Positions 1 through 19,556 are shown, counted from the first letter of the stretch. The stretch is DNA of 64,000 bases from an uncultured bacterium (GCA_963736115.1 CAVTNR010000012.1:1-64000); one strand, 5' to 3'. Numbers and translations: made by a program. Notes: generated from the sequence alone by a model not told the origin.

Positions 1-968
1 AAGGCCTGGAGTGGTATTGATTTCGCCGATGATGCCGTTTGATCGTCAGCTGCTCCCCGATGTCTTTCGCGATGATGTCGACGCCGGCGAGTCGCACCCC
101 GATGTTCCGCGTAAGCCTCGAGCAGGCAGCGATGGTCGCAGGGTGAACCTGCCCAGGCAGGCTGTGGTTCTCGGCAGAACTGTTTTCGTTTACGGCACGC
201 TTGAGCACCACGGTCTCGCCGGCTGCTGGCACGCTGCGCGTTGAAAGGCCCTGGGCTGCAAGATAGTGAAGGCATTCCCTGTCTTGCCGGATGGGGCTGA
301 GCGCCGTGAAGGGACGGCCCGGCAGCCGGGCCGCGTTCTCCGCCGTGACCAGTTCCCCAATGCTTCGCATGCCGTCGCCCGTCACGAGGGGTGGATCGCG
401 CCGCACTGCGTCGACCAATTCTCCGTCGAGAAAGAGGAGCCGCCAGCTGTGGCCTTCGACCTGTTCTTCCGCGATCAGCCGGGGATCGAAGCGGGCCGCC
501 GCAAAGGCCGCCCGGCGGAGTGCAGACGGTGACGTGATGCCGGTCGTGACACCGCGGCCACCGCCGGTTCCCGCATTGGGCTTCACCACCAGGGGGCGGC
601 CGGCGCTTTCCAGAAGCTCCATGGCCTTCGTCATGTCTGTGGCGGTGAACCTCACATGGCGCCGGGGAAGCCCTGTTCGGCGATCAGTTCATAGGTCATC
701 GCCTTGTTGCCCATGAGCTTCAGCGTCAGGTGATCGTCCAGCCTGACATCAGGACCACGCACGATGAGAACCGTGCCATTCCGGGTCAGGCGGCTGAAGC
801 CATCGTCCCATTTGCGGAATTCGGCTCCCAGCTCCTGTGCCACATTGGCCCAGAACAGGTCATAGTAGCGCCGGCGCAGTTCCTGGAACCTGACGTGGTA
901 GTCTCGGGCGCATAGAGGATGCGGAGCGAGCGGAACAGGCTGCGGGTGATGGCGTAAGGCAGCATCAT
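1..968 (-). CDS. ATP-grasp ligase, cyanophycin-synthetase-like N-domain plus ATP-grasp (frameshifted; 3' end outside window)
   Basis: Minus-strand fragments GFSRLTRNG...LMGNKAMTYELIAEQGFP and LESAGRPLVVKPNAGTGGGRGVTTGIT (ATP-grasp VVKP/GxGV motif), split across frames. Confidence 0.6.
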
Positions 969-977
969 GTCACCAGA

Positions 978-1732
978 CTATTCGATCAGGCAATGATCGG
1001 CTTCTAGTTGACGGTCCACCCGCTCGTTCGAGAAGCGGCCGGCTTTTACGTCCATCTCGTACTGCTGCATGCGGGCACGATGGGTGCGAAGCCGCATGAT
1101 GGTTTCTTCGGCCACCTCGCGGCGGATAACTGCGATGCCGCTCATGTCGGCCGCAATGATATCGCCGGGATTGACCACGATGCCGCCGCAGGAGACCGCA
1201 TAGTTGAGCTCACCCGGGCCGCGGTGCAGCGGGCCGAAAGGCGTTACGCCGCGAGCGTATACGGGCAGGTCGGCTTCGATCAGGCCGGGCAGGTCGCGCA
1301 CCAGTCCGTCGACGATAAAGCCAGCAATTCCGCGGTGTTTGGCCTTGTTGGTCACGAGATCGCCGAGCACGGCGTTGCGGTGAGCTCGCTGGTGTCAACG
1401 ACGACGATGTCACCGGGCATCGCAGCGTCGAGAGCCTTGTGGACCATGAGGTTGTCGCCCGGAAACACCTTGACTGTGAGGGCAGGGCCGATCAGGCGCT
1501 TGCTGTTGACGATATTCCTGATTTCCGGCGCCATCGTATACATGCGGTTCAGGATGTCGGAAATGTCCGGCGTCTCGAAGTCGCGCAGCATGTTGATGAT
1601 GTGCTGCGGCGGACGCTCGATGTTGAGGCGAATGCGGAAACCGGCGCCGGGAGTCATCTCGGATGACTTGGGGCGTTCCGTGGCTCCCGTATCGGGAGAC
1701 TGCTTACCGAAGTTGCTGGGTATGATGGCCAT
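978..1732 (-). CDS. RraA / HMG-aldolase family protein (frameshift near 1370)
   Basis: GPALTVKVFPGDNLMVHKALD...PGDIVVVD, then LGDLV..AKHRGIAGFIVDGLVRD and VVNPGDIIAADMSG in the next frame. Confidence 0.85.
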
Positions 1733-1881
1733 GATCCTGATCCTCGCAAGTGGAAGTAAATCTTCCGGCTAAAGACGATGCAGGGCAGGTGCCACGGTCG
1801 CAGTGGATTAACCTTGTCGTTAACGCTTTCTTAATGCGATGTGCCGGGGTTAGAATAATCCAAGCAAGGGGAGTTCGCCAG

Positions 1882-2385
1882 ATAGTCTCGAGAGCGATAT
1901 TGCGCAGATCGCGCGGCAGGAGGAGGCGTTGCGCTTCATGAAATTCAGCGAGGCGGACGCCTGGGCGCTGGGCAGCATAATGCGAGCGAGAGCGGAAGAC
2001 CGGAAGATTTCCCTTCGTTATCGATGTTCGAATAGGCGTCCGTCCACTTTTCTACACAGCCTTGCCAGGCTCGACACCGGAGAACCCGGACTGGGTGCGC
2101 CGCAAGGTGAATACGGTTTTGCGTTTCCACAAGTCATCCTACCGCGTGGGCCGTGAATACGAGCTGCAGGGCAAGAAGTTCGAGGCCGCGCGCGGCATCG
2201 ACCCCATGGATTTCGCCAATGCGGGCGGCGGCTTTCCCATTCATCTGAAAGGCACGGGTGTCGTCGGTGTCATTACCGTCTCCGGTGTGCCGCAGCGAGA
2301 AGACCATGGCTTCGTGGTCGAGATGCTTTGCGAGTTCCTCGGGCAGGATCATGGAAGCCTGGCGCTGGTGCCCGAGAACGCCTGA
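1882..2385 (+). CDS. Heme-degrading-domain (UPF0303/GlcG-like) protein (frameshifted)
   Basis: FSEADAWALG...PGSTPENPDWVRRKVNTVLRFHKSSY...GGGFPI...ITVSGVPQREDH. Confidence 0.8.
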
Positions 2386-3129
2386 TGGAACTGGGCGTGC
2401 TTTTCCTTGTGGTCGCTACCATCGCGGCCTTTCTGGTCGGGGCGTCTAAGGGCGGACTGCCAATGGTGGGAGCACTTGGTGTTCCGCTCATGGCGCTCGT
2501 CATGCCGCCGGTTGCCGCTGCCGCCATGCTTCTGCCCGTTTATATCGTCAGCGACATGGTTGGGCTTTGGGCCTATCGGAAACAGTTCGACAAGCCGGAA
2601 CCTCTACATTCTCGTCCCCGCGATGATCTTCGGCGTCGGCATCGGCTGGGCCACGGCGCGCATCACGGCGGAATGGATGGTGACGCTGCTCGTCGGGCTT
2701 GTCGGCCTCTACTATTGCCTGACCATTGTACTCAAGAAGGCCGATGCGCCGCCGAAGCCCGCTGACGTGCCGCGCGGCATTTTCTGGGGCACCATCACGG
2801 GGTTCACGAGTTTCGTGTCTCACACTGGCGGGCCGCCGTATCAGACTTACGTGCTGCCGCAGAAGCTGCCGAAGATGGTGTTCGCGGGCACCAGCACCAT
2901 CGCGTTTGCGGTCATCAATGTGGTGAAGCTCGTGCCTTACTGGGCGCTGGGCCAGTTCAACCCCGGCAATCTCGAACTTGCGGCCATGCTGTCGCCCGTG
3001 GCAATCGTGGGCGCCGTGATCGGCTACAGGCTTACCGCCATCATTCCCGAAAAAGTGTTCTACCGGCTCGTCGAGGTGGCGCTGTTCATCGTGTCGCTGA
3101 AACTCATCTACGACGCGTTGTTCAAGTGA
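2385..3129 (+). CDS. Sulfite exporter TauE/SafE family membrane protein (frameshift near 2595)
   Basis: FLVGASKGGLPMVG...GFTSFVSHTGGPPYQTYVLPQKL; ATG overlaps the upstream TGA. Confidence 0.85.
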
Positions 3130-3825
3130 TCCGCATCGAGCCCGTCACCAGCCTCGACCTTCGCTGCCTGGACGGCGGCTGGGATTTCGCCACCGGAACC
3201 GCGAGGCCATCGACCGGCACTGGCTGGGCATTGTTGCGGAAAAGCCTGCGCTGTGGAACGGGCAGGTGCTGCTGTGCACGGGCGCCAAGGCGGCGAACGG
3301 GCATTTCTCGGCGACCTTCACTGAGACCGACTACGCGAGCTTCGTCGCCTGGCGCGACTGGGGCAGGCCGGATGCGAGCGTCTGCAATTGCTTTGGCGTT
3401 GCTGCCGCATTCTCGTCCGACGGCGCGCTGGTGCTGGGCGTCATGGGCGGCTGGACGCTGAATGCGGGCAAGGCCTATCCGCCCTCGGGCACGCTGGAGC
3501 CGAAGGATGTCCGGGCCGGACGGTTCTGGTCGATCTTTTCGGAAACATGCGGACGGAGTTGCTGGAGGAGACCGGGCTCGATCTTCACCATTCCACTGTC
3601 GGCGAGATCGTCGCGATCTTCGAAGGGCCGCGCCTTGCGATCGCCCGGCGTCATGACTTTGCGCTGAGTTTCGCCGAGATGGAAAAGCGGTTCGCCGCGC
3701 ATTCCGCCAGCGAGGAAAACCCGGAGCTTGCAGCCATTGAACCCGTGCGGGCCGCATCGCAAATCGATTCAAGAATGCCACCCTATGCAGCGGAAATCAT
3801 TCGGTACTTCATTTCCTCAACTTGA
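3126..3825 (+). CDS. NUDIX-like hydrolase (frameshifted)
   Basis: ETDYASFVAWRDWG...SSDGALVLGVMG..TLNAGKAYPPSGTLEP..., then MRTELLEETGL (Nudix box). Confidence 0.75.
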
Positions 3826-3901
3826 GGGTTGACGGCTTGCGCTGCCACTGCAACTTGCGCGTCTGGAGGGGGCTCCAGATAGCAGACGGCGGATTACCAG
3901 A

Positions 3902-5577
3902 ATGACATTGCTACGACGACTTGCCCTCGCGCTGCCACTGGCCGTGGCGGCGTGTTTCATTTCTTTGACACCTGTACAGGCGGAGGAGGGCCAGCGGGTG
4001 ATCCTCGTTCTGGATGCCTCGGGCTCCATGTGGGGGCAGATCGATGGAAAGCCCAAGATGCAGATCGCCAAGGAGGTGGTCGCCAAGGTCGTCGGCAGCT
4101 GGAAGCCGGAGGACGAACTTGGCCTCGTGGCCTATGGCCATCGCAAGAAGGGTGCGTGCGACGACATTGAAGTGCTGGCCGAGCCCGGAAAGCTCGATGC
4201 CGCGTCGTTTCTTGACAGGGTGAACGGCCTCAATCCCAAGGGCAAGACGCCGATGACGCAGGCCGTGCGGCAGGCGGCCGAGGCGCTGAAATATACCGAG
4301 AAGCAGGCGACCGTGATCCTCGTCTCCGATGGCATCGAGACGTGCGACCCGAACCCCTGCGCGGTTGCCGAGGAACTTGAGAAACTGGGCGTTGCACTCA
4401 CCGTTCACACCGTTGGCTTCGGCCTCGACGACAAGGGCGCGGTCGAGCAGCTCAAGTGCCTCGCCGAGAAGACCGGCGGCATCTCGACCATCGCCGACAA
4501 TGCCGACGAACTGAAGGACGCGCTCACCAAGACGGTCGAGGCCAAGACCGAACCTCCGCCGCCGCCGCCTGAACCCGCCGCGCCTGAGTTCAACGTGACG
4601 GGCACGGTCGAGATGGCCGAGGGCGTTGGCTTCCCGCCGAAGTTTTCGACGCCCAACTGGGAGTTCTTCCGTGCCGTGAACGGTGAGAAGGGCGAATGGG
4701 TGAAGACGGAGTATGGCTCGGCGATCAAGACCAGCATCGAGACGCCCGGAGCCTATATCGCCAGGGTTTCTCTCAGTTCTGCTGCCATCGAAGTGCCCTT
4801 CGTTCTGGAGGCCGGAAAGCCGGTTCAGCTCGATGTCAGCCTGGAAGCGGGCGTCGTGCAGTTGAAGGGCATGATGGATGCCCAGACACCGCTGGCCGAA
4901 GGCAAGGGAACGTGGGAACTGCTGACGACCGAGGGCAACTGGCTTGCCACGGAATATGGCCCGCAGGCCGCATTCATGGCGAATGCCGGCACTTACAAGA
5001 TGAGGCTCACGCTGGGCGAGGCGAAGATCGAGCAGGATCTGACGGTCACGCCCGGCAAGATCGACGACGTGGTGATGACGCTGGGTGCCGGTATCGTGCA
5101 GGCGTCGGCTGTCTTCGCGGCGGGCGGCCCTGCGGTTCCCGAAGGCGCAACATTCGAACTGCGCAAGGCCGAGGCCGCTCTCGACGGCAGTCATGAGTGG
5201 ATTGCGACCGAATACCAGTCGCCGTCGCAGTTCAACGTGCCCGCGGGCAAGTACCTGCTGGTGGTGATCCGCGACTACGCCACCGGCTCGACCGAGGTTC
5301 AGGTGACGCCGGGTGGTGTCACCAAGGTCGAGGTCAATCTCGACGGGGGCTATCTGGCGCTTACCGGTCCAGCAGACGCGACATTTGAGGTTTATGGCAG
5401 CGAGAAGGATATCGCGGGCAACCGCAACCGCGGATCGCCACGGAATTCAATGGCCAGTTCAACAAGGCGTTCAATGCCGGCACATACCATGTCGTGGCGA
5501 GCAAGGATGGCACCGTCGTCGCCGAAAAGGACTTCGAGGTGAAGGCGGGGCAGCGCACCGAAGGCACGATCCCCTAA
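3902..5577 (+). CDS. Exported VWA-domain protein with C-terminal repeated beta-sandwich modules (frameshift near 5430)
   Basis: Signal peptide; MIDAS motif DASGSMWG; VILVSDGIETC; Pro-rich linker; repeated W(I/L/V)xTEY modules. Confidence 0.85.
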
Positions 5578-5647
5578 GCACGGCATCGCGGCAATCGGGA
5601 CAATGTTCCGGTTGCCGCATGCTCCGGCCCGCGCAATAGTTCCGGGC

Positions 5648-6556
5648 ATGAAGCTCACATTCCATACCTATGACGTGTTCACCGCCACGGCGTTCGCGGG
5701 CAATCCGCTGGCGATCGTCGAGGATGCCGATGGCCTGAGCGATGCCCAGATGCAGACCATCGCGCGCGAGTTCAATCTCTCCGAGACGATCTTCGTCCTG
5801 AAGCCGAAGGATCCCGCCAATACGGCGAGCGTCCGCATCTTCTTTCCCACCGCCGAGATCCCTTTCGCGGGCCACCCGACAGTGGGCTGCGCCATTCATC
5901 TGGCCCAGAAGAAATACAAGCCGGGCTGCGCTTTCGAGACGACGATCAGGCTTGAGGAGGTGGCGGGTCTTGTGCCGGTGAAGGTCTCGCGCATCGGCGA
6001 CGTGCCGCGCGCGCAGTTCACGGCACCGGTCACGCCCTTCGCCGTCGACATGCCCTTGCCCTCGATCGAGGACACGGCGCGGGCCTTGTCGCTCGAAGTC
6101 TCCGACATCGGCTTTGACGGTCACGGCCTCGGGCTCTTCCAGGGCGGGCCGCGATTCTTCTATGTGCCCCTCAACTCGCGCGCGGCGCTCGCCAGGGCGA
6201 AGGTCATCGAGCCGCACTGGTCGCGCGTGGTGAGTGCCATGGGGATTGGCAATGCCTATCTCTATGTGCGCGGCGGCGACGACCCGAAGACAAGTTTCCG
6301 CGGCCGCATGTATGCGCCCACCGATGGCATCCCCGAAGATCCGGCCACGGGGTCCGCGACCGCGCTTCTGGCGGCCCAGCTCTTGCGGTCCGAGAAGCTT
6401 TCCGATGGCACGCACCGCTGGCAGCTGGAGCAGGGCTATGAGATGGGGCGGCCGTCCGATCTCTGGCTCGAAGCCGATGTTGCGGATGCGAAGCTCACCG
6501 CCGTGCGGGTTGCAGGTCAGGCCGTGCAAATCATGTCGGGTGTGCTAGAAGTCTGA
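5648..6556 (+). CDS. PhzF family isomerase
   Basis: DVFT...GNPLA, AREFNLSETIF, EIPFAGHPTVG, EDPATGSA, QGYEMGRPS. Confidence 0.95.
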   Translation: MKLTFHTYDVFTATAFAGNPLAIVEDADGLSDAQMQTIAREFNLSETIFVLKPKDPANTASVRIFFPTAEIPFAGHPTVGCAIHLAQKKYKPGCAFETTIRLEEVAGLVPVKVSRIGDVPRAQFTAPVTPFAVDMPLPSIEDTARALSLEVSDIGFDGHGLGLFQGGPRFFYVPLNSRAALARAKVIEPHWSRVVSAMGIGNAYLYVRGGDDPKTSFRGRMYAPTDGIPEDPATGSATALLAAQLLRSEKLSDGTHRWQLEQGYEMGRPSDLWLEADVADAKLTAVRVAGQAVQIMSGVLEV

Positions 6557-6600
6557 CGGGGAAGACGAACGGGCGATATTGGGAGGGGGACCAGCCGCCG

Positions 6601-7023
6601 ATGAAGACGATTTTGCTCATCGCTCATCTGATCGCAATTGCCACGGGAACGGGCATGAGCATCGCCAACTACATCAACATCCGCGTCGCCGCCGGCGAGA
6701 AGGGCGAACGCCGCGAGGCTTTGGCCTTCCTGCGCCGCGTGCTTGCGCGCATCGCCGACATCGTCATTCTCGCCATCTGGATCACCGGCATCGGCCTCTG
6801 GCTCAACCTGCCGCCGGCTGACGAGCCCAACAGCTGGTTCGCGGTCAAGCTTGGTTTCGTGGTGCTCCTCACGCTCAGCCATGGCCTTGCCCGGATGACG
6901 GCGGGCCGCATGATGCGCACTGGCGACCAGTCGCTCTACCCGCGCATGGAACTGTTCGTCTCGGGCGTGTGGATGTCGGCGCTGGCCGCCATCATCCTCG
7001 CGGTGCTGGCCTTCGAAACGTGA
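6601..7023 (+). CDS. Small four-TM membrane protein
   Basis: 140-aa ORF with an upstream GGAGG and four hydrophobic segments. Confidence 0.7.
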   Translation: MKTILLIAHLIAIATGTGMSIANYINIRVAAGEKGERREALAFLRRVLARIADIVILAIWITGIGLWLNLPPADEPNSWFAVKLGFVVLLTLSHGLARMTAGRMMRTGDQSLYPRMELFVSGVWMSALAAIILAVLAFET

Positions 7024-7026
7024 GGC

Positions 7027-7270
7027 TTACTCGATCGAGAGCATGGCCTTCGCTTCGGTGAGCACGTCCACGCCTTCCTGCTCGTTGCCCGCGCCGCATA
7101 GCTTGGCCGCCTGGCTCCGCATGTCCTGAACCTGCGCCTTCTGTTCGGCGGGCACGGCATCGGAGGCCAGTGCCTGCGTCGACCTTCTTGAGGTCGTCGT
7201 CGCAGGGGCCAGCGAAAGCAACGCCGGTCGTGAAGGCAAGCAGGACAAGGGCGGTGGCGGCGGCTTTCAT
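7027..7270 (-). CDS. Small exported helical protein with two Cys (frameshift near 7170)
   Basis: Signal peptide MKAAATALVLLAFTTGVAFA-GPCDDDLKKVD continues in another frame as ALASDAVPAEQKAQVQDMRSQAAKLCGAGNEQ. Confidence 0.6.
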
Positions 7271-7557
7271 GGGCGGGCAATCCTCAGAGTTGGTGTTGCG
7301 GCATCATAGACCCTGCGGGGCGGATGATGCCAGACGTCCCGCACGTCTCTGCAAGCCGATTGTGGCGCTTCCGCAACAGGAACCGGTCATTTGAGGGCAT
7401 TCTTGCAGTTTCTGCTTGTGAGCGAGGTGCGACAGGCTAGAGGCCCGCTCCCCGGACGGACACCGCCCGAGCCCAAGCGGGTCAAGCTCGTGAGCTTGCC
7501 TGGCGCAGCGTCTCCCTGAGATCCGTGTGTACCTGGGCCGGAACAGGACGTCCGGTT

Positions 7558-7630
7558 GAGGATGTAGCTCAGCGGTAGAGCGCCGGCGATCCGCCGGAGG
7601 TCGTGGGTTCGAGTCCCGTCGTCTTCTCCA
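7558..7630 (+). ncRNA. tRNA-like element 1 with aberrant anticodon arm and encoded CCA
   Basis: Acceptor GAGGATG/CGTCTTC; D arm GCTC-AGCGGTA-GAGC; CCGGC-GATCC-GCCGG arm with 5-nt loop; T arm GTGGG-TTCGAGT-CCCGT; ends TCCA. Confidence 0.8.
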
Positions 7631-7703
7631 CTGCGAATAGCTCAGTTGGTAGAGCAACAGATTGGACTCTGTTGGTCGAAGGTTCGATTCCTTCTACGCA
7701 CCC
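7631..7703 (+). ncRNA. tRNA-like element 2 with 6-nt anticodon loop, mismatched acceptor stem and no CCA
   Basis: D arm GCTC-AGTTGGTA-GAGC; ACAGA-TTGGAC-TCTGT; T arm GAAGG-TTCGATT-CCTTC; acceptor CTGCGAA/TACGCAC has two mismatches. Confidence 0.75.
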
Positions 7704-7740
7704 GCGGCGTCAAACCCGCAACAGGCTTTAACCTGTCTTT

Positions 7741-7970
7741 GAACTGAGCCTTCCGGAGTGGCTGGCGCAAACCGTCGATACATCCGCGCAAGCGGAGGTG
7801 GAGGTGGTGCAACGCCGCCCGCATCCTGCCTGTGCCGCGGAGTGCCGCCGCAGCGCGCCTCGGGACCTGGCTCTGACGCAGCCCTGGCTGTCAGGCTCCG
7901 TCCCGCTGGCCCGCCGCGCTGGCGCCAAGGCCCGCAAGGTGCCGGTCCAAGGCCGCTCCGGAAGGTGTTC
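7741..7970 (+). ncRNA. Putative multibranch structured RNA upstream of the slipin gene
   Basis: Closing helix CCTTCCGGAGTGGC / GCCGCTCCGGAAGG; internal TCCGC-GCAA-GCGGA, GGTGG-TGCAACG-CCGCC, CAGCGCG/CGCGCTG, GGGAC/GTCCC. Confidence 0.55.
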
Positions 7971-8060
7971 GCAATTCAACCTCAACCTCAAACCCCAAGC
8001 CCAACGACGACAAAGGAAAATCCGCCTCATGCGATGAGCTGACGCGACCGAAGAAGGAGA

Positions 8061-9236
8061 ATGACGATGATCGAAGTCCGCAAGTTTCTGCTCCGCACCC
8101 GGGTCACCGTGCCTGAGGGCGAGCGCGCCATCGTGCTGGTCAACGGCAAGCTCGATACCATTCTCCGTCCGGGGCGTCACTTCTTCACGGCCATCGAAAG
8201 GTCGGTCTCCGTCGAGGCGCATGCGCTGAAGGACCCGGTGTTCAACAGCGGCCTTGAAGGCGCGTTGCGGCAGTCGCGGCCCGATCTGGTGGCCGAGCAC
8301 TTCACCGACGTGCGGACGGGGGCGCAGGAGACTTGCCGTCATCTATCGCGATGGCAAGCTCTACTGGGTGGTGAAGCCCGATTCACGCACGCTGCTGTGG
8401 ACGGATGCCGGGCCGTGGAGCATCGAGACGGTGGACGTCTCGTTGTCGCTCGCGGTGCCGGAGGCGCTGGCCCAGCGGGTCATCGGATCGGGAACGGTCG
8501 ACCGCATCAAGCGCTTCGGCGTGGAGGAGGGCCAGGTGGGCCTGCTCTACATCGAAGGCGCCTTCGCGGGAAGGCTGGAGCCGGGCATGCACTCGTTCTG
8601 GAACGTGGGCCGCACGGTCAACGTGAAGATCGTCGACACGCGCCAGCACGCGCTGGATGTCACGGGCCAGGAAGTGCTGACCCGTGACAAGGTCTCGATC
8701 CGGGTGAACCTCGTGGCGCGCTACCGCGTCACCGATCCGGTGAAGGCGGTGGCCTCGGTGAAGGACTATGCGGATGCGCTTTACCGCGCGCTGCAGCATG
8801 CCTTTCGCCAGTCGCTGGCCGCGAAGACGCTCGACGAACTGCTGTCGCGCAAGGGTGACACCGATGCCGAGGCGGCGGCTCGGCGTGAAGTCCGAGATGG
8901 CGGCGATCGGGATCGAGGTCGCGCGACATCGCCATCAAGGACGTGATCCTGCCGGGCGACATGCGCGAGATCCTGAACAAGGTCGTGACGGCGGAAAAGG
9001 AGGCGGAAGCCAACGTCATCCGCCGCCGCGAGGAGACCAACGCCACGCGTTCGCTGCTCAACACCGCGAAGGTGATGGCGGAGAACCCGGTGATGCTGCG
9101 GCTGAAGGAACTGGAGGCGCTCGAAAAGATCGCCGACAAGGTCCAGTCGCTGACCGTGCATAACGGAACGCGCGGTCTTCTCGACGACCTCGTGTCGCTG
9201 CGGCCCGGCTCCGACACGCCGAAGCCCAAGGCCTGA
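8061..9236 (+). CDS. Slipin / SPFH (band 7) family protein (about three frameshifts)
   Basis: RBS AAGGAG; LEPGMHSFW...VDTRQHALDVTGQEVLTRDKVSIRVN; DVILPGDMREILNKVVTAEKEAEANVIRRREETNATRSLLNTAKVMAENPVMLRLKELEALE. Confidence 0.9.
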
Positions 9237-9241
9237 CGATC

Positions 9242-9276
9242 AGCCCTCCCTCCGCCAAGCCGGGGGGAGGGCGCTC
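9242..9276. terminator. Hairpin between convergent slipin and ABC permease genes
   Basis: GCCCTCCCTCCG...CGGGGGGAGGGC inverted repeat. Confidence 0.5.
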
Positions 9277-9279
9277 TAT

Positions 9280-10227
9280 TCAGCGCTGCTCCTCGCCGCC
9301 TGCGATGACGATGACGGCGATGATCATCACGCCGGTGAGGATGAGCCGGATGCCGGCGCATGCGCCGAAGGTGTTGAGCATCGTGACCAGCAGATACATG
9401 AAGAGCGCCGCGCCCCAGATGCCCGGCACGTTGGCGCGGCCGCCCGCGACGGAGGTTCCGCCGATGACCACGGTGGCAATCGACGCCAGCAGGAATTCCT
9501 CGCCCATGTTGAGGGCGGCACCGCCCGAGAAGCCCGACAGCACGATGCCGCAGATGCCTGCCAGGAAGGCGCTGAGCACATAGGTTGCAAAGCGCGTGGC
9601 ATCGACGTTCATGCCGGCCAGCCATGCGGCGCGCATGTTCTGGCCCACTGCCAGCACGCTGCGGCCATAGACGGTGCGGGCAAGGATGAGCGCGATGACG
9701 GCGCTGATGGCGAGCACGAGGATGGCAACGAGCGGCACGCCCATGATGCGCGTCGTGGCGAATTCGGCCAGCGGGGCAGGCGGCTTGATGCGGATGCCGC
9801 GGCCATAGGAAATGGCGGTCGAGAGGATGAGAAAGCTCGACGACAGGGTGGCGATGATCGGCGGAATGCGCAGCAGGCGGATGAGCGCGTAGTTGAACAT
9901 GCCGACAAGCGTCGCGGCTCCCAAGGCCGCCACGATGCCGAGGATGAGGCGGGCCGATTGCTCGTCCATCACCTTCATGGCGACGACGCCCGAGAGCGTG
10001 ATGGTGGCGGGAATCGACAGGTCCACGTTGCCGGGGCCCGTGGTGATCACCATCATCTGCCCCAGCCCCACGATGATGGTGAAGGTTGCAAATGACAGGG
10101 CGGCGGTGAGGATGGCGGCGGCGCCCTGTCCGCCGGTGTAGGCAATCGTCAGCAGCCACACGGCAAGTGCCGCGGCGAAGGACCAGACCCAGGGCTTGTG
10201 CCGCAGGCGTTGCAGCATGGCGTTCAT
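9280..10227 (-). CDS. Sugar ABC transporter permease
   Basis: GPGNVDLSI; YGRSVLAVGQNMRAAWLAG; SIATVVIGGTSVAGG. Confidence 0.9.
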   Translation of the reverse strand: MNAMLQRLRHKPWVWSFAAALAVWLLTIAYTGGQGAAAILTAALSFATFTIIVGLGQMMVITTGPGNVDLSIPATITLSGVVAMKVMDEQSARLILGIVAALGAATLVGMFNYALIRLLRIPPIIATLSSSFLILSTAISYGRGIRIKPPAPLAEFATTRIMGVPLVAILVLAISAVIALILARTVYGRSVLAVGQNMRAAWLAGMNVDATRFATYVLSAFLAGICGIVLSGFSGGAALNMGEEFLLASIATVVIGGTSVAGGRANVPGIWGAALFMYLLVTMLNTFGACAGIRLILTGVMIIAVIVIAGGEEQR

Positions 10228-11153
10228 CGCTTCTGCTCCCCGTAGCTCACGAGTGCGCGCAGGGCGAGCACGATGATGAGGATCGCGCCTTGCGCGCCGA
10301 TCTGCCAGTCGGGCGAGATCTTGAGGAAGATGAGGAAGGAGCCCGCGAGCGCCAGCGTGAGCGCGCCGACCACGGCGCCCAGCGGCGAGACGCGGCCGCC
10401 GATGAATTCGCCGCCGCCGAGGATCACGCCCGCGATGGAATAGAGCGTGTAGCGGTCGGCCACATGCGCGTCGCCCGCCGTGGTGAGGCCCAGCAGCGAG
10501 AGGCCGGAGAGCACGCCGAAGAAGCCCGCCAGCATGTACATGATGATCTTGGTCTTCAGCATCGACCAGCCGGCGCGCGTCAGCGCCTTGGGATTGCCGC
10601 CGGCACCGCGCGCGATGACGCCATAGGACGAGAGCATGAGCGCCAGATGGACGGCGACGCCGATGACGATGGCGGCGATGATGGGGAAGGGCACCACCGG
10701 CGTCTGCAGCGCCATCAGGGCTTTCAGGCAGGCCGGCGCCTTGCCGCCCGGTGACGGCAGGATGAGCACGGCAATGCCGAGCCAGACGAAGGACAGTCCG
10801 AGCGTCACCACGATGGAGGGCAGGTTGCGCAGGTGGATCAGCGCGCCAACCGCGCCATAGGCGGCGATCAGCACGAGCAGCGCCAGAATGCCCAGCAGCG
10901 GGATTGTCGAGCAGCAGCGTGGCGCCGATGCAGCTCACGAGGCCGACGAAGGGGCCGATCGAGAGATCGAGGTCGTTGACCGTGATGATGAACATCTGCG
11001 CGATGGTGGCGAGCGCAATCGGCACCGCATATTGCAGCATCAGGTTGAGGCCGAAATAGCTCATGGTGCGCGGCTGCACGATGAAGGTGGCGATCAGCAC
11101 CACGGCCAGCGAGATGAAGGGCAGGGCGTGCCCGCAGCAGTCGCCGGTATCAT
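10224..11153 (-). CDS. Sugar ABC transporter permease (frameshifted)
   Basis: NDLDLSIG; NLPSIVVTLG; SIAGVILGGGEFIGG. Confidence 0.85.
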
Positions 11154-12591
11154 GCGGCGTGCTCCGCGAAGGAGGCATGCAGCACTTTTTCCTCGGTCAG
11201 TTCGTCAGTGCCGAGGCTGGCGACGATGGCGCCATTCCGGAACACATAGGCGCGGTCGCAATGCGACAGTTCGTCGATCTCGGTCGTGTACCAGATGAAG
11301 GTGCGGCCCTCGTCGGCCTGCGCACGGATCATGCGCGTAGACTTCCTGCTTGGTGCCGATGTCGACGCCGCGCATCGGGTCGTCCATCAGGATGATCGCG
11401 GCATCGGAGGCCAGCGCCCGGGCGAACAGCGCCTTCTGCTGGTTTCCGCCGGACAGCGTGAGGATGTTGTTGTTCACGTCCGGCGTGCGGATCGCCATGC
11501 TTGGCCTTCCACTCATCGGCGAGCTTCGCTTCCGCGCCAAGGTCGATGAGGAAGCCCTTGCGGAGGGCTTTAAGCGAACGGATCGTGATGTTGCGGCCGA
11601 TGGACCAGAGATTGAAGACGCCGTCGGACTGGCGGTCGCCGGCGATGAAGGCCTGGGCTCCCTTCACCTGGGCGCTGTCCCGCGCATAGATCTGCAGCAG
11701 CATCCGCGTCTGGCCATGGCCTGCGAGGCCGGTGAGGCCGACGATTTCGCCCTTGCGGGCTTCGAGCGCGATCGAGCCGCCGGTCTTTGGTGTCGGCCTT
11801 TGCCAGAACTTCGCCGGTCGCGGCCTTGGCAGCCTGCCGCGTGTGCTCGCGGGCTTCCGAGCCCATGGCGGCGACCAGCGAGTTGCGGGTGAAATCGGCG
11901 GCCTTGCGTTCGGCCACGGTCTTTCCGTCCTTCATCACGACGATGCGGTCGGAGGTGGAGAGGATTTCGCCGAGCAGATGGGAGATCAGGATGATCGAGG
12001 TGCCGCGCGCGGTCTCCTTGCGCACATAGGCGAGGAGTTGCTCGGCGGTGACGGCATCGAGCGAGGAGGTCGGCTCGTCGAGGATGACGAGGCGCAAGGC
12101 GCCTTCGGTCACTGTGAAGGCGCGGGCGATTTCGGCCATCTGGCGCTTGCCGATGGCGAGGTCGGCGATTTCGTCGTCGGGGCTGATGCCGTGGCCGGGG
12201 AAAATCTCATCGAGCTTGGCTGAAATGATGCTGCTGGCGCGCTTCTTCCAGCCGAGGCCCTTGAGGCTGCGATGCACGATGCGGGTGTTCTCGGCCACCG
12301 TCAGGTTGGGGCAGAGCGACAGTTCCTGGAACACGCAGCGCACGCCCTTGGGCCTGTGCGGCGGCGGCGTTCCATGTGCCTGAGTATTTCGTTCCGCCCA
12401 CGGACAATTCACCGGCAGACGGGCGTGAGGTTGCCGCTCAGCACGTGCATGAGGGTGGACTTGCCGGCGCCATTGTGGCCGACGAGCCCAAGGCATTCGC
12501 CCGCGGCGACGCTCAAGGTCACACCCGCCAAGGCACGGACGGCGCCGAAAGATTTTTCGACGCCGTCCAGTCTGATTGCTTCGGAGGACAA
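11150..12591 (-). CDS. Sugar ABC transporter ATP-binding protein, double domain (multiple frameshifts)
   Basis: Walker [10 protein letters not shown]; [10 protein letters not shown]; LSGGNQQK; [13 protein letters not shown]. Confidence 0.9.
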
Positions 12592-12594
12592 GCC

Positions 12595-13605
12595 TTACTT
12601 GCCCGCGACGACCTTGGCTGCGTCTTCAGCCGAGTATTCGACGTTGGCGACGCCGCCCTTTTCGGTGGTGGCGAGGCTGGCTTCGAGATTGTCCTGGTCG
12701 ATGCGGAGGAACGGCACGGTCAGGTCCTTCGGCACTTCCTTGCCGTCGAGGATCATCTGCGCCACCCAGAAGGCCAGCGTCGAGACGCCCGGCGCGATGG
12801 AGACGGACATGGTCTCGTAGCCATTGGCGTCCTTCTGTTCCTTCCACCACTGCAGCTCGTCCTGGCGGTTGCCCATGATGATCATGGGCGTCGGGCGGCC
12901 TGCGGCGGCAAAGGCCTGCGCGGCGCCATAGCCGTCACCGCCCTGCGTCACCACGGCCTTGACCTCGGGCAGCGACGGCAGGATGCCGGCGACGGCCTTC
13001 TGCGCCACTTCCTGCGCCCAGTCGCCATGGACGGAGCCGACGATCTTGAACTGCGGGTTCTTGGCGACGGTCTCGTTGATGCCCTTGGAAATTTCATCAT
13101 CCACGAAGACGCCGGCAAGGCCGCGGATTTCGAGCAGGTTGCCGCCTTCCGGCATCTTCTTGGCGAGGTACTCGACTTCGGAGGCGCCCATGGCCTTGAA
13201 GTCGACGGCGATCCGCCAGGCGCAGGGCTCGGTCACGATGCCGTCGAAGGAGACGACGATGATGCCGGCATCGCAGGCCTGCTTCACCACACCGTTCAGG
13301 GCGTCGGGCGAGGCGGCGTTGATGACGATGGCGTTGTAGCCCTGCAGAATCAGGTTCTGGATCTGCGCGGCCTGTTCGGTCACCTGGTTTTCGGAGGTGG
13401 TGAAGGGATCGGCAGCGGCCACGATTCCGGCTGCCACGGCGGGCTTCGTCACCTTGTCCCAGCTCTTCAGCATGGCCTGGCGCCAGGAGTTTCCGGCATA
13501 GTTGTTGGACAACGCGATCTTCTTGTCCTTGGTGTCGGCCATGGCGCTTCCGGCGGCCAGCATGGCGGCAAGGGCGATGGTGCAGGCGAGGGTCTTCTTG
13601 AACAT
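12595..13605 (-). CDS. Sugar ABC transporter periplasmic substrate-binding protein
   Basis: Signal peptide; IALSNNYAGNSWRQAM; intact 336-aa ORF heading the ABC operon. Confidence 0.92.
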   Translation of the reverse strand: MFKKTLACTIALAAMLAAGSAMADTKDKKIALSNNYAGNSWRQAMLKSWDKVTKPAVAAGIVAAADPFTTSENQVTEQAAQIQNLILQGYNAIVINAASPDALNGVVKQACDAGIIVVSFDGIVTEPCAWRIAVDFKAMGASEVEYLAKKMPEGGNLLEIRGLAGVFVDDEISKGINETVAKNPQFKIVGSVHGDWAQEVAQKAVAGILPSLPEVKAVVTQGGDGYGAAQAFAAAGRPTPMIIMGNRQDELQWWKEQKDANGYETMSVSIAPGVSTLAFWVAQMILDGKEVPKDLTVPFLRIDQDNLEASLATTEKGGVANVEYSAEDAAKVVAGK

Positions 13606-13648
13606 TGGGTCCTCCCGAGACAGTGGCGAGCCCTCTCAAACGAGGCTC

Positions 13649-13721
13649 ATACTAACATGTTAGCATACCAGATCGCCCTCGCAACCGCCCCGCAACGCAG
13701 GTGCACAAGTTTGTCGTACAA
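13649..13721. promoter_or_regulatory. Putative repressor operators upstream of the ABC operon
   Basis: Near-perfect palindrome ATACTAACATGTTAGCAT (13649-13666) and TTGTCGTACAA (13711-13721), which resembles GntR/FadR boxes. Confidence 0.45.
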
Positions 13722-13741
13722 TTGAGATGGATCAAGTGGCG

Positions 13742-13859
13742 GCCCTCATCCGTCGCTCCGCGCCACCTTCTCCCATGGCTGCGCCACGGGAGAAGGAAGT
13801 GAAGGAGCCTTCTCCCGTTCGAAGAATGGGAGAAGGTGGCCGAAGGCCGGATGAGGGCT
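13742..13859. repeat. Alphaproteobacterial intergenic palindromic element (RIME/CIR-like)
   Basis: GCCCTCATCCG...CACCTTCTCCC..GGGAGAAGG...CCTTCTCCC..GGGAGAAGGTG...CGGATGAGGGC: two inner hairpins enclosed by terminal inverted repeats. Confidence 0.75.
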
Positions 13860-13931
13860 CTTCGCGCCATCCATTGCGCCAGCGCGCGTGATGCTCTATA
13901 GGCTCGGCTCATGGCACACGCGCGGAACATC

Positions 13932-13997
13932 ATGTCCAGCCCAGCAGCTCTTCCGCTGCCGCTCGCGCTTGGCCGCCTCCTTCTTAGCTGCCCCTGA
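13932..13997 (+). CDS. leuA leader peptide MSSPAALPLPLALGRLLLSCP (in-frame upstream ATG at 13911)
   Basis: 7 Leu in 21 codons including a CTC-CTT-CTT run; stop codon lies in hairpin CCCCTGAGGG...CTCTTCAGGGG; 80 nt upstream of leuA. Confidence 0.75.
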   Translation: MSSPAALPLPLALGRLLLSCP

Positions 13998-14078
13998 GGG
14001 CCGGCCGGGCTTCTGCCCTGGCTCTTCAGGGGATCGCAGTTCACCAGCTAAGCCAGGCACAGAAGAGAGTTTCCGACC

Positions 14079-15753
<1,675 letters not shown>

Positions 15754-15756
<3 letters not shown>

Positions 15757-15782
15757 ACAAGGGGCGGCGGGCCATGTATAGA
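15754..15782 (+). promoter_or_regulatory. Sigma70-type promoter for tRNA-Lys
   Basis: TAGACA-N17-TATAGA followed by a GC-rich discriminator. Confidence 0.55.
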
Positions 15783-15828
15783 GCCCGCCGTCGGCCCCGG
15801 ATTTCGGGGCCGTACGTCCTTCATGGAC

Positions 15829-15904
<76 letters not shown>

Positions 15905-16261
15905 TTAAAATCACACATCGAAGTCGAGATGATTGGGAAGCTCCTGCGGATGTGGGCGTGTACCGGCTGCATGTCATGCAAATTTTTGTCCTCGCGCTGA
16001 CACTGACCATCCGTTCTTCTCGCAAGAGAAGCAAACACCGGCCGCACACATGCCGAGACGGTTGGGATACTGCTCTACAACAGAAAATCGACCAGGAAGG
16101 CCAAACCTGAAATCAGGGGCAGGGTCCAGAAGAGAACTTGCATGGACGAAATGTCGATTTCTTGTTGAGCTGGTGTCACGTGGGGCTCGTTCTCTTTCGG
16201 CGACCTGGAGTAATTACGCCGAAACGGTCGGCTGGCATGAAGTTTTCGCAAGATGCCTCGA

Positions 16262-16597
16262 TCAGGCGGCGTGTCCGATAAGCTTGGCGCGGCAGAACGG
16301 ACGCTCTGACCCCGAACTGTCGGCCACGGCGAAGCCGACGCACACGGCATCTTCCGGATCGATGGTGAAACAGCGCTCTGCATCGTTCCAGTAAATCCGG
16401 TCGCCCACCTGCCAGTCCTCGGAAGGCGCTCTGTCGAGATCGAAGACCCCCGCCGTGCTGATCACGACACTGTCGCCAGCCTGTGCCCATGTCTGGGCGA
16501 TGCCGAACAACGCGCCCTTGAGCACACCACCACCGGGTTGAACCTCGTAAGGCGCGGCAATCTCGACATTGAGGCCCTGATGCACAAAGCTGTTCAT
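16262..16597 (-). CDS. DUF2190 / phage capsid-cement-like protein
   Basis: MNSFVHQG...APY.V..GGGVL.GALFGIA...GVFDL...WQVGDRIYWND. Confidence 0.75.
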   Translation of the reverse strand: MNSFVHQGLNVEIAAPYEVQPGGGVLKGALFGIAQTWAQAGDSVVISTAGVFDLDRAPSEDWQVGDRIYWNDAERCFTIDPEDAVCVGFAVADSSGSERPFCRAKLIGHAA

Positions 16598-16649
16598 GGA
16601 ATTTCCCCTGTGATTCGGTTTTAGAAAGACAGTCGAGACCAGGCTGCCA

Positions 16650-17009
16650 CTACTGGCTTGCCCAAAGCACGCGCGCGAGATACGTCACGTCATCGGGCTT
16701 TATCAGCACCTCGCGCCGAGACTTGCCGCCGAGCGTAACGGAAATGGCAGTGTTGTCACGGTGAACCAGCACGCCACCGATGAGTCCGAGCCGACCTGAT
16801 TCGATGACGATACGGTCGCCTACTGCAATCGGCACACCGTCCGATACGATCAGCATGTCGCCATGGCCGTACAGCGGCAGCATGGAATTGCCGAATACCT
16901 TGATGGTGCGGCCCTTGCTCACCTCGGGCGCAAGACCATTCATGGAGCGCTCCATTTCAAAGATGTCCTCACAGATGAAAGAATGATTGGAACACGACTG
17001 CGCCGCCAT
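16650..17009 (-). CDS. Stand-alone S24 (phage-repressor C-terminal-like) domain protein, no HTH
   Basis: VFGNSMLPLYGHGDMLIVS...VGDRIV...LARVLWASQ. Confidence 0.7.
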   Translation of the reverse strand: MAAQSCSNHSFICEDIFEMERSMNGLAPEVSKGRTIKVFGNSMLPLYGHGDMLIVSDGVPIAVGDRIVIESGRLGLIGGVLVHRDNTAISVTLGGKSRREVLIKPDDVTYLARVLWASQ

Positions 17010-17021
17010 AGGCAGCGCTAC

Positions 17022-17654
17022 CTAGATTCGCTTCCGGAATCGGGTCGGCGTGCGACGGGGCACCAGAAGGAGAAAGCGCAGGAGTTGCGGCAGCGATGTT
17101 GCCTGCATCTTGGCCAGAATGGCAGCGCGGTGATGATCGACGGTTCGGACGCTTATCGAGAGTTCGGTTGCAATAGCGGAGCTTGAGTAGCCCTGAACCA
17201 CCATTCCTGCGACATCACGCTCGCGCGGGGTCAACGTTGCGTAACGCTCGCCCACGGCACGGACGAGTGAATGCTCCTCACCCATGCGCCCGTTTGCACT
17301 GATTGCCGTGCCAATGCTCTCCGCGAGAACCTCGTCCACCACCGGCTTCTCGATGAAGTCGGCCGCCCCGCTTTTCATCGCCTGCACCGCCATTGGCACA
17401 TCGGCGTGACCGGTGATGATGATGACCGGCGGAGCACTCTCCATCTTGCTCAGCATTTGAAGCATTTGCAGACCGTCGATCTCAGGCATGCGGACGTCGA
17501 GCACGATACAGTCAGGCCTCGTCGTCTCGATCTCGCGCAACGCGTGGTGAGCAGAAGAGCAGGTCACGGTCTGGTAGCCATAGGTTGAGAGCACGGATGA
17601 AAGCGACTCCCTCACCGCTGCTTCGTCATCAATGATCATGACCGTCTGTGTCAT
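17022..17654 (-). CDS. FixJ/LuxR-family response regulator
   Basis: IIDDE; LDVRMP; TGHADVPMAVQAMKSGAADFIEKP; LTPRE...LSISVRTVDHHR. Confidence 0.93.
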   Translation of the reverse strand: MTQTVMIIDDEAAVRESLSSVLSTYGYQTVTCSSAHHALREIETTRPDCIVLDVRMPEIDGLQMLQMLSKMESAPPVIIITGHADVPMAVQAMKSGAADFIEKPVVDEVLAESIGTAISANGRMGEEHSLVRAVGERYATLTPRERDVAGMVVQGYSSSAIATELSISVRTVDHHRAAILAKMQATSLPQLLRFLLLVPRRTPTRFRKRI

Positions 17655-19304: not shown

Positions 19305-19556
19305 TGCTTGCAATGGCAGCTTTCGGTTCGACGGTTTTCCTTGGCTGAGCTTAGCCTGCCGATGGCGGGACGCAAATGTCATTCAAGCACTGAGGACCAC
19401 AAGCATTGAAGAAAAGCGGACCACGCAACTGGATGGCAGGGGATGGGGAAGTGTTGCGCGGTCCGCCCTTTGGTGGGGTCCTCCTTAAACTCGAGCCAGT
19501 TGACTTCGAGGCGATTTGATTTTCTCTCATCGACACTCTCGTGCCAATGGGCAGGG

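Follow-up and report, generated by a model that had tools for sequence, protein, structure and literature searches.

Among described systems, the one closest to the locus reported here is a unit of a Band-7 (SPFH) gene and a tRNA-like RNA, b7a-tRNA, located beside RtcB. The passage on this RNA in a later preprint credits it, as an in-silico prediction, to Burroughs and Aravind 2016 (bioRxiv 10.1101/312249), and states that it was not experimentally validated as of 2018 (Wang et al., bioRxiv 10.1101/312249). A literature search for b7a-tRNA or for tRNA-like RNAs of SPFH genes found nothing relevant beyond this preprint. A second described pair is the RNA YrlA and the protein Ro60/Rsr, which are encoded in rsr-yrlBA-rtcBA operons (Chen et al. 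2014, PMC4201824; Hughes et al. 2020, PMC7790460); YrlA has been proposed to act on anticodon nucleases as a competitive inhibitor (Hughes et al. 2020, PMC7790460). In Anabaena, the slipin alr0740 is listed as 42-fold derepressed, along with rtcB and a tRNA operon, on deletion of TrcR (PMC10272220, Table 1), and the TrcR regulon is presented in that paper as a translational-stress regulon (PMC10272220). The current work concerns a stretch of 64,000 nucleotides from an uncultured bacterium (GCA_963736115.1, CAVTNR010000012.1:1-64000), referred to below as the window, in which two tandem tRNA-like RNAs, named T1 and T2, precede a stand-alone slipin gene of the SPFH/Band-7 type. The RNA and the slipin gene are one module, shared by many Alphaproteobacteria and set in unrelated gene neighbourhoods, and both cloverleafs are conserved, non-decoding tRNA mimics. 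That this conserved RNA-plus-slipin module is real is almost beyond doubt. The pairing of a slipin with a tRNA-like RNA, noted in a preliminary description of the window, had been anticipated by the Band-7-associated b7a-tRNA predicted in 2016, as far as the preprint's account of it goes (bioRxiv 10.1101/312249).

T1 (7558..7630) and T2 (7631..7703) lie on the plus strand with zero spacer between them. They were called by ARAGORN as 'tRNA-Asp (atc)' (7558-7630) and 'tRNA-??? (gg)' (7631-7703), and both pass the Rfam tRNA model RF00005, T1 with 53.7 bits and T2 with 52.1 bits against a gathering score of 29; the same model gives 76.8 bits to an ordinary tRNA-Lys at 15829 in the window. In the RF00005 alignments, the anticodon loops are short by 2 positions in T1 and by 1 position in T2. 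Read base by base, the acceptor stem of T1, GAGGAUG/CGUCUUC, is paired at 7 of 7 base pairs, including G3:U70 and U6:G67. The D and T arms of T1 are canonical, a 5-bp anticodon stem (CCGGC/GCCGG) encloses a loop of 5 nt, GAUCC (7588-7592), and the 3' end consists of U73 and an encoded CCA (7628-7630). Its anticodon stem is that of the tRNA-Asp of the host genome, to which T1 as a whole is about 79% identical. The D, anticodon and T stems of T2 are canonical, with an anticodon loop of 6 nt, UUGGAC (7662-7667); its acceptor stem holds 5 of 7 pairs, with the mismatches C1.C72 and A6.A67, and there is no CCA. Among the features of a functional tRNA, the paired acceptor and the 3' end are present in T1 and missing in T2, and the 7-nt anticodon loop is missing in both. 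The preliminary description had reported two spacerless cloverleafs with loops of 5 and 6 nt, the first with G-U pairs and CCA, the second with a mismatched acceptor and no CCA; every particular holds, and the calls of ARAGORN and Rfam are the same.

T1 and T2 share with canonical tRNAs (RF00005) the cloverleaf, the D and T arms, the GG of the D loop and the T loop GGUUCGA. They are unlike canonical tRNAs in their loops of 5 and 6 nt, in the defective, CCA-less acceptor of T2, in the variation of the anticodons among orthologues, and in being embedded in a longer conserved RNA. The labels given by ARAGORN to elements of this family include Asp, SeC, 'Stop' and '???', and genome annotation will go on labelling them odd or pseudo tRNAs.

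The window lies in the host genome G000 (87% complete). Scanning one genome per species gave 9 loci with slipins of 53-87% identity, from Aestuariivirga, Oricola, Novosphingobium, Devosia and metagenome-assembled genomes. All 9 have tRNA-like genes about 350 nt upstream of the slipin gene and on the same strand, in tandem in 7 of them, and the 'anticodons' assigned by ARAGORN vary from one locus to the next. A profile of these slipins matched 290 stretches, and the best 80 loci, mostly from Mesorhizobium isolates, were used. Among these best 80 of 290, ARAGORN made at least one call in 77, two calls in 58 and none in 3. Parsing anchored on the T loop found the tandem in 82 of 86 loci. The covariance model R1 recovers the full-length tandem in two more, L036 (108.5 bits) and L043 (89.3 bits), so that a tandem stands about 350 nt upstream of an orthologous SPFH gene in 84 of 86 loci; the other two, L042 and L055, have less than 400 nt of upstream sequence. 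The neighbour genes, compared by Pfam, are fully different among four lineages: the window, Mesorhizobium, Novosphingobium and Anderseniella. The earlier proposal that the cloverleafs and the SPFH gene form a self-contained module is upheld by this conservation and by these differing neighbours, and the possibility, raised with it, that homologous slipin loci would show no such RNAs is set aside, as such loci do carry them. The description as 'minimal', however, is not borne out: only some 146 nt of a conserved, structured leader about 640 nt long are taken up by the cloverleafs.

Generic SPFH genes (about 260 aa, 30-36% identity) served as the control: none of the 20 loci inspected around them holds a tRNA-like gene or RtcB. 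In a phylum sample of 167 genomes searched at E <= 1e-25, 47 genomes matched, a tally that includes the unpublished genome G163, and all 46 matches outside G000 are generic SPFH genes of about 260 aa with 30-38% identity; the 20 control loci were taken from among them. The slipin fragment of the window, searched at E <= 1e-20 in 41 genomes, was found in G000 only (1/41). A DNA search for the T1-T2 pair in 41 genomes, G000 included, matched ordinary tRNAs only, and two metagenome pattern scans for the pair gave no match. The apparent tandem matches in these 41 genomes are tRNA-Lys pairs and were rejected.

Conservation of the structure was measured on an alignment of 63 sequences, covering the two cloverleafs and two downstream hairpins. 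In this alignment, 93.4% of cells are paired, against 40-46% with slid partners, and compensatory changes occur in 31 of 51 pairs; the observed values were reached by none of 500 shuffles. The arms covary across the family, and the anticodon loop length and the anticodon drift. In T1, the loop measures 3-10 nt; 6 nt is the commonest length (33 of 69 distinct sequences), 7 nt occurs in 10/69, and on a 77-taxon tree the length has changed at least 23 times. Of the 69 distinct T1 sequences, 43 encode CCA, 38 have a fully paired acceptor and 46 have A as the discriminator. At the 3:70 pair of T1, 40 of 63 sequences have G:U and 16 have G:C, and G3:U70 is retained in three lineages in which the neighbouring acceptor pairs differ. 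Among the ordinary tRNAs of the host genome (n=39), G3:U70 is found in the 3 tRNA-Ala genes only; this pair is the main identity element for AlaRS and marks alanine identity. In a Mesorhizobium subclade (L041, L046, L049, L050, L054, L056, L057 and L059), T1 is reduced: its D loop is shorter, its T stem has 3 pairs and CCA is missing, while T2 is intact. T1 is therefore able to degenerate without loss of the module.

T2 follows a different pattern. Its D, anticodon and T stems are 100% paired across the family; in its acceptor, three inner pairs hold, and outer positions are unpaired in 52 and 56 of the 63 sequences. Of 62 distinct T2 sequences, 58 have a 7-nt loop; the 4 with a 6-nt loop include the window and its closest relative, L032. 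Loop sequence is far from uniform, with 31 distinct loops among the 62, and there are 15 distinct anticodons, with at least 39 label changes on the 77-taxon tree. Mapped on the 77-taxon tree of the slipin gene, positions 34 and 35 of T2 have changed 28 and 23 times, more than all but one of 37 four-fold degenerate sites of that gene, for which the mean is 10.5 steps; the other T2 positions average 3.6. Position 36, with 17 steps, is reached by 16% of the four-fold sites. The pairwise difference of the anticodon is 0.23, 0.50 and 0.505 at four-fold divergences of 0.08, 0.165 and 0.24, and the T2 stems and T loop differ by 0.02-0.03 between loci with a four-fold divergence of 16-24%. This shows a strong constraint on the tRNA body of T2 and an anticodon that is either unconstrained or under diversifying pressure. 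No consistent cis partner complementary to the T2 loop was found in the leader or at the gene start. In the related Mesorhizobium loci L087, L092 and L103, the 7-nt loop UCGAGAA meets a perfect complement at +6 from the start of the slipin match, shortly after the slipin reading frame begins; this is probably chance, as no other loop type shows such a complement and the number is within chance expectation.

The leader of about 640 nt, of which T1-T2 is the core, extends from a promoter to the slipin gene. A putative sigma-70-like promoter is located about 125 nt upstream of T1 on the plus strand, with -35 CTTGTG (7415-7420), a spacer of 16 nt and -10 CTAGAG (7437-7442). Across lineages, the two boxes keep a fixed spacing, with TTG retained in the -35 and TA in the -10. 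Its Mesorhizobium equivalent reads CTTGCG-N17-CTATAG within the nearly invariant block CTTGCGACAACCCGTCGCAGGGGCTATAG, inside which there is a palindrome. A scan of the window with the strict E. coli-type sigma-70 consensus found no promoter here, so the call is made from conservation only. The sigma-54 pattern (-24/-12) matched 0 of 80 upstream regions. Transcription would start near 7449. The palindrome, TGCGAC-N5-GUCGCA, is placed between -35 and -10 and is nearly invariant in L066 (about 4355-4385) and other Mesorhizobium loci; the window (7415-7442) has no clear counterpart of it, and L032 has a different palindrome at the same place. It is a candidate operator for a repressor.

The 5' leader (7449..7557, plus strand) is alignable across all lineages and forms a hairpin CAAGCU/AGCUUG at 7483-7498 and a longer one at about 7503-7531; RNAalifold predicted 15 pairs on 24 leaders, 11 of them with compensatory changes. 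T2 is followed on the same strand by the hairpins GCGG/CCGC (7704-7719) and ACAGG/CCUGU (7721-7736), and a hairpin is found here in every lineage. On alignment A2, pairing of the second helix reaches 97.6%, and compensatory changes occur in 2 of its 4 pairs; L032 lacks 14 nt, which is most of this hairpin. In the 3' leader (7737..8060, plus strand), the window and L022-L025 share conserved blocks, namely CCGGAAGGUGUUCGCA (7958-7973), a CA-rich tract (7974-8012) and the hairpin-forming GCCUCAUGCGAUGAGCUGACGCG (8024-8046). The ribosome-binding site is GGAG at 8056-8059. Across 61 distinct sequences of Mesorhizobium, conservation extends all the way from the promoter to the start codon. No terminator-like site was found between T2 and the slipin gene in the window or in the Mesorhizobium locus L066, and in L066 such a site follows the slipin gene. 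The leader and the slipin gene are likely to be co-transcribed.

The slipin gene (8061..9236, plus strand) was recognised from its open reading frames (ORFs) and the Pfam domain Band_7 and encodes about 389 aa when intact. Its ATG is at 8061 or 8067, that is, 357-363 nt after T2, in agreement with the spacing of about 360 nt on the same strand reported before, and it ends at 9236. Band_7 (PF01145) matches the window fragment with E 2.7e-19 and an intact orthologue with E 1.5e-35. Compared with the intact orthologue of L032, with which it shares 84% nucleotide identity, the gene of the window is split over four frames by single-base insertions near 8331, 8884 and 8923. In short-read contigs of related strains, the base at 8923 is absent and there is a net loss of one base at 8879/8884. 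Intact orthologues have 382-394 aa and are named 'slipin family protein' by NCBI.

An AlphaFold model (predicted local distance difference test, pLDDT, 83.9) begins with some 135 residues rich in beta structure, which are followed by an SPFH core and then a long helix. Foldseek matched human stomatin with E 4.9e-15, and VIA, with residues 133-389, gave Z 15.2 to human stomatin and HflK/C and Z 15.0-15.1 to prohibitin. The predicted fold is that of the ring- or cage-forming stomatin, HflK/C and prohibitin, with the SPFH core and the long helix both present. None of 80 orthologues has an N-terminal hydrophobic anchor, the top Kyte-Doolittle means over 19 residues being at most 1.7; their hydropathy peaks lie in internal beta strands with D or K residues, and the N-terminus is polar and beta-rich. 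In this the slipin, which has neither a transmembrane nor a hairpin anchor at its N-terminus, differs from membrane-anchored SPFH proteins of the stomatin, HflK/C and QmcA type, and the 'membrane scaffold' of the preliminary description is not supported. Two chains of the major vault protein align to residues 13-380 of the model, with Z 11.9 and 9.9. Folded alone, the N-terminal 140 residues gave pLDDT 91.3 and no match at Z >= 8; the best match of this domain, at Z 6.0, is a generic small beta-sandwich, and SPFH proteins are matched weakly (Z about 5) in their first strands. The vault alignments are not supported by this search, so a vault-like reading stays speculative.

A link to RtcB-type repair operons had been proposed, and it is upheld by the protein, which is a full-length homologue of the slipin of RtcR-slipin-RtcB-RlaP operons. 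In a tblastn search of plasmid and chromid records, full-length slipin homologues were found with 38-40% identity over 94-100% of the length; the relation is one of homology, in which orthology and paralogy are not distinguished. These homologues stand in classic RNA-repair settings. Citrobacter has rtcR divergent from a slipin-nucleotidyltransferase pair, and E. coli has slipin-nucleotidyltransferase. In Burkholderia cenocepacia, the order is RtcR, a sigma-54-like motif (TGGCAC-N5-TCGC), a leader, slipin, RtcB and RlaP; the RlaP enzymes are described as still uncharacterised at the end of 2025 in a recent preprint (bioRxiv 10.64898/2025.12.29.696909). ARAGORN calls in the Burkholderia leader a tRNA-like gene with a 2-nt 'anticodon', and R1 matches this leader with 58.9 bits, aligned over the full tandem, with two adjacent T-arm modules at matching spacing. 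In the first of the two modules, the acceptor stem and the T arm are kept at high posterior, and the D arm is absent.

Repair genes were also searched for elsewhere in host genomes. RtcB is present in G000 on a separate contig (C9), where neither a slipin nor a tRNA-like RNA adjoins it. RtcR, TROVE (PF05731) and RlaP were not found in G000 at its 87% completeness. In the other host genomes searched, RtcB was not found in 2 of 5, and RtcR was not found in G000, G041 or G042. Novosphingobium and Devosia have RtcR-RtcB loci elsewhere in the genome, without slipin; Anderseniella has RtcB elsewhere, also without slipin (RtcR was not searched for in Anderseniella). In Devosia (L140, G044:C3:403500-413500), the stretch at about 4319-4975, between the RtcR gene and RtcB, holds five T-arm-bearing modules with the repeat pattern ...GAAUGCC..GGAACUACAG..GGUUCGA.., matched by R1 with 16-30 bits, and no slipin is found there. 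This stretch looks like an array of Y-RNA-like tRNA mimics. The same genome also has a stand-alone slipin module, 150 kb from the five-module stretch.

When these results are set beside the described systems, the Band-7 + b7a-tRNA unit is the nearest. In both, an SPFH gene without a transmembrane segment is directly preceded by a tRNA-like non-coding RNA; the slipins of the window type are homologous to those of the RtcR-slipin-RtcB-RlaP and rtcR-slipin-nucleotidyltransferase operons; and two adjacent T-arm modules are found in the leader of the Burkholderia operon. Homology between the module and the b7a-tRNA/Band-7 unit is judged probable. There are also differences. RtcB, RlaP, RtcA and RtcR are not adjacent to the module (Pfam, four lineages; RtcB at none of 80 loci), and, unlike the RtcR/sigma-54 control of Burkholderia and Citrobacter, the promoter of the module is sigma-70-like, with the sigma-54 pattern at none of 80. 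Both modules are full cloverleafs here and the T2 anticodon is hypervariable. Without adjacent RtcB and without RtcR/sigma-54, the module is regulated in another setting and may also function in another one. Four features may be new: that the module stands alone, that its two mimics are differentiated, that they belong to a conserved RNA of about 640 nt behind an ordinary-looking promoter, and that the T2 anticodon turns over very fast.

YrlA and Ro60/Rsr resemble the module in that an RNA with a tRNA-like domain is encoded beside a ring-forming, RNA-associated protein in an RNA-repair context, and in that two RNAs stand in tandem (yrlB, yrlA), as the published accounts of that operon have it. 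The module, on the other hand, has no Ro-binding stem; its partner has the SPFH fold and not TROVE, and TROVE was not found in G000 (87% complete) or in the ORFs scanned near the locus. The Rfam model of YrlA gave 22.9 bits on the module (E 0.028), against a gathering score of 69. Resemblance to the tRNA-like domain of tmRNA and to other alanine-accepting mimics is seen in T1, which keeps a G3:U70 acceptor, CCA and T arm and has a degenerate anticodon arm. Differently from tmRNA, the module has no tag reading frame and no pseudoknots, and G3:U70 is not universal in the family; charging of T1 is perhaps also hindered where its CCA pairs into T2.

The explanation that accounts best for these observations overall, and which we hold with moderate confidence, is that the module is a stand-alone alphaproteobacterial descendant of the Band-7 + b7a-tRNA unit, without RtcB, RtcR and sigma-54, that acts as a tRNA-mimic ribonucleoprotein (RNP). 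The leader RNA would be the cognate partner of a slipin oligomer, by analogy with Ro60 and YrlA. It would be made in cis with the protein and might be trimmed at its tRNA-like ends by tRNA-processing enzymes. The particle would then engage, through tRNA mimicry, enzymes that handle or damage tRNA, under translational or RNA-damage stress. In such a particle, T1 would present the acceptor/T-arm face, with G3:U70 and CCA as an alanine-type signature, and T2 the elbow and the anticodon arm, with a loop free to vary. By the same analogy, this RNP scaffold may be the most likely mechanism, and it is put forward tentatively.

Several observations weigh against this explanation. R1 gives 62.9 bits to the tRNA-Lys of the window and only 58.9 to the Burkholderia leader; with a score no higher than that of a single tRNA-Lys, the homology of the RNAs across classes rests on alignment and position. 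The leaders of Citrobacter and E. coli are unrecognised by ARAGORN, Rfam and R1. RtcB is found within 5 kb at 0 of 80 loci, and searches of two Mesorhizobium genomes, including a complete chromosome record, found no RtcB and no RtcR, so a role as RtcB cofactor cannot be general. The G3:U70 pair of T1 is not universal, the 16 of 63 sequences with G:C including those of Novosphingobium, and Burkholderia has G:C as well. In Mesorhizobium, the CCA of T1 overlaps the 5' strand of the weak T2 acceptor helix, and this drawing of the CCA into T2 argues against a simple release and charging of T1. Co-transcription of leader and gene is deduced from one fact, the lack of a terminator motif before the gene. 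Finally, if the frameshifts in the slipin gene of the window are real, the module is dead in this strain.

Other functions have to be weighed against the RNP scaffold. The leader may be purely cis-acting, its tRNA-like modules serving as processing or regulatory signals for the slipin mRNA: cuts by RNase P and RNase Z could set the 5' end of the mRNA, or tRNA-binding factors could refold the region of the ribosome-binding site, and the RNA would have no independent life as a partner of the protein. Such a leader fits with the absence of a terminator between T2 and the gene, with the hairpin-forming blocks just before the ribosome-binding site (8024-8046 and the Mesorhizobium equivalent), and with the order of leader and slipin, which is kept even in RtcR-controlled operons; there is also the precedent of tRNA genes co-transcribed with a downstream protein gene, as in the tufB operon of E. 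coli. A conserved structure of about 640 nt with two full cloverleafs is, however, much more than a processing signal needs, and no simple anti-sequestor logic is visible, as the T2 loop has no consistent complement in the leader or gene start. The possibility, which is compatible with an RNP, is a minority one, though not a negligible one. T2 may instead be a bait, decoy or sensor for anticodon-loop nucleases, either soaking up the nuclease, as suggested for YrlA, or altering slipin expression when the leader is cut. This is less probable still and not exclusive of an RNP or of a cis-acting leader. The excess of changes at positions 34/35 over all but 1 of 37 four-fold sites, the anticodon difference of 0.23-0.505 at four-fold divergences of 0.08-0.24 and the kept loop length (7 nt in 58/62) are compatible with a bait, but an unconstrained loop would look alike; in a GC-rich genome, codon bias itself constrains the four-fold sites, of which only 37 were usable, and position 36 is unexceptional. 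Moreover, no nuclease or toxin gene is linked to the module among the neighbours scanned, and the T1 loop is often, at 3-6 nt, too short for mimicry of a substrate loop. A combination of these ideas is slightly more doubtful than the bait by itself: an RtcB-independent RNP in which T1, mimicking an alanine-type acceptor, and T2, a bait under diversifying selection, are loaded in cis onto a soluble ring or cage of slipin. In it, T1 may be charged or bound by AlaRS, by CCA-adding or by other tRNA-processing enzymes, the T2 loop would be matched to the anticodon nucleases or toxins of each lineage, and the particle or slipin expression would be switched when the bait is cut or bound.

Two explanations that deny the RNAs any such function have very little left in their favour. 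One takes T1 and T2 for two ordinary tRNA genes with anticodon loops shortened by indel errors of the assembly. The assembly is noisy, with three frameshifting insertions in the slipin gene and split ABC-transporter genes, related contigs have an extra T after 7549, and a loss of one base in the T2 loop of the window is possible. L032, however, is an independent assembly and has the same loop lengths (5 and 6 nt) with other letters (AUCAA, CUGUAA), and isolate genomes of Mesorhizobium have T1 loops of 3-8 nt. GAUCC cannot be derived by deletions alone from the tRNA-Asp loop CUGUCAC, the acceptor defects of T2 are substitutions common to the family, the errors in the slipin gene are insertions and not deletions, and the anticodons vary among orthologues. 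This explanation is close to refuted. Of the caveat on indel artefacts raised in the preliminary description, the part on the noisy contig stands and the part on the loops falls, odd loops being the norm of the family (T1 has 7 nt in 10/69 only). The other explanation, decaying tRNA pseudogenes or tRNA ends duplicated by the integration of mobile elements, could draw on the anticodon stem and the identity of about 79% that T1 shares with the host tRNA-Asp, on neighbourhoods that vary by lineage and on the failure to find the module in 40 relatives of the host. Against it stand purifying selection and compensatory changes on every arm, a position and spacing to the slipin gene that are fixed in 84/86 loci, the conservation of the flanking leader, and the lack of any integrase or repeat among the neighbours scanned. 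Hardly any probability remains for it, and both the covariation and the unchanging synteny with the slipin gene refute it.

If the RtcB-independent RNP with its bait were true, it would be a new kind of tRNA-damage sensor or decoy in bacteria without the Rtc repair enzymes. More generally, what is labelled a 'tRNA' here is two mimics with different faces inside an RNA of about 640 nt, and the anticodon of T2 is among the fastest-changing sites of the locus. The clade is a clean test case, with the RNA and the protein alone, an ordinary-looking promoter, and cultivable, tractable Mesorhizobium and Novosphingobium. Since in some hosts no RtcB or RtcR was found in the genomes searched, the pair can be studied apart from RNA ligation.

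The neighbourhood in the window is as described earlier. A small divergent ORF (6992-7270, minus strand) has a signal-peptide-like N-terminus and may encode an exported protein, and ABC-transporter permease and ATPase genes (9280-12496, minus strand) are convergent with the slipin gene. The latter are chopped into many overlapping ORFs in different frames, which indicates frequent indel errors in the contig. The reported absence of rtcB, rtcA, TROVE and rtcR next to the module also stands: none of these domains is among the Pfam matches of 31 ORFs or fragments at 291-19379, a scan of ORFs from 90 aa upwards that covered the overlapping frames in part, and RtcB is at none of the 80 loci. None of the sequencing runs contained more than 0.13 of the query words, and four runs that were assembled gave short contigs of relatives only, one of which, of 419 bases, spans 7435-7826.

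Some other RNAs were noticed. Contig C8 of G000 (C8:221239-222963 and C8:164513-164872) bears an array of seven tRNAs (Gln, Arg, Glu, Arg, Ser, Ser, Ala), in which Ser-GGA, Ser-CGA and Glu-CTC duplicate, with other sequences, tRNAs of other G000 contigs; it could be a mobile array or a mis-binned contig. The same contig also bears a one-piece tmRNA with the tag GNNYSYAMAA. At C9:170011-170082 in G000, ARAGORN calls a 72-nt 'tRNA-Arg (tcg)' that is GC-rich and non-canonical, without the GGUUCGA T loop, and is probably a false call. In Novosphingobium, the small RNA suhB/mmgR of Rfam is matched on the minus strand in L027 (7373-7450) and L028 (7393-7470), with 57 and 54.7 bits against a gathering score of 41; these matches lie about 2.5 kb downstream of the slipin genes and are unrelated to the module.

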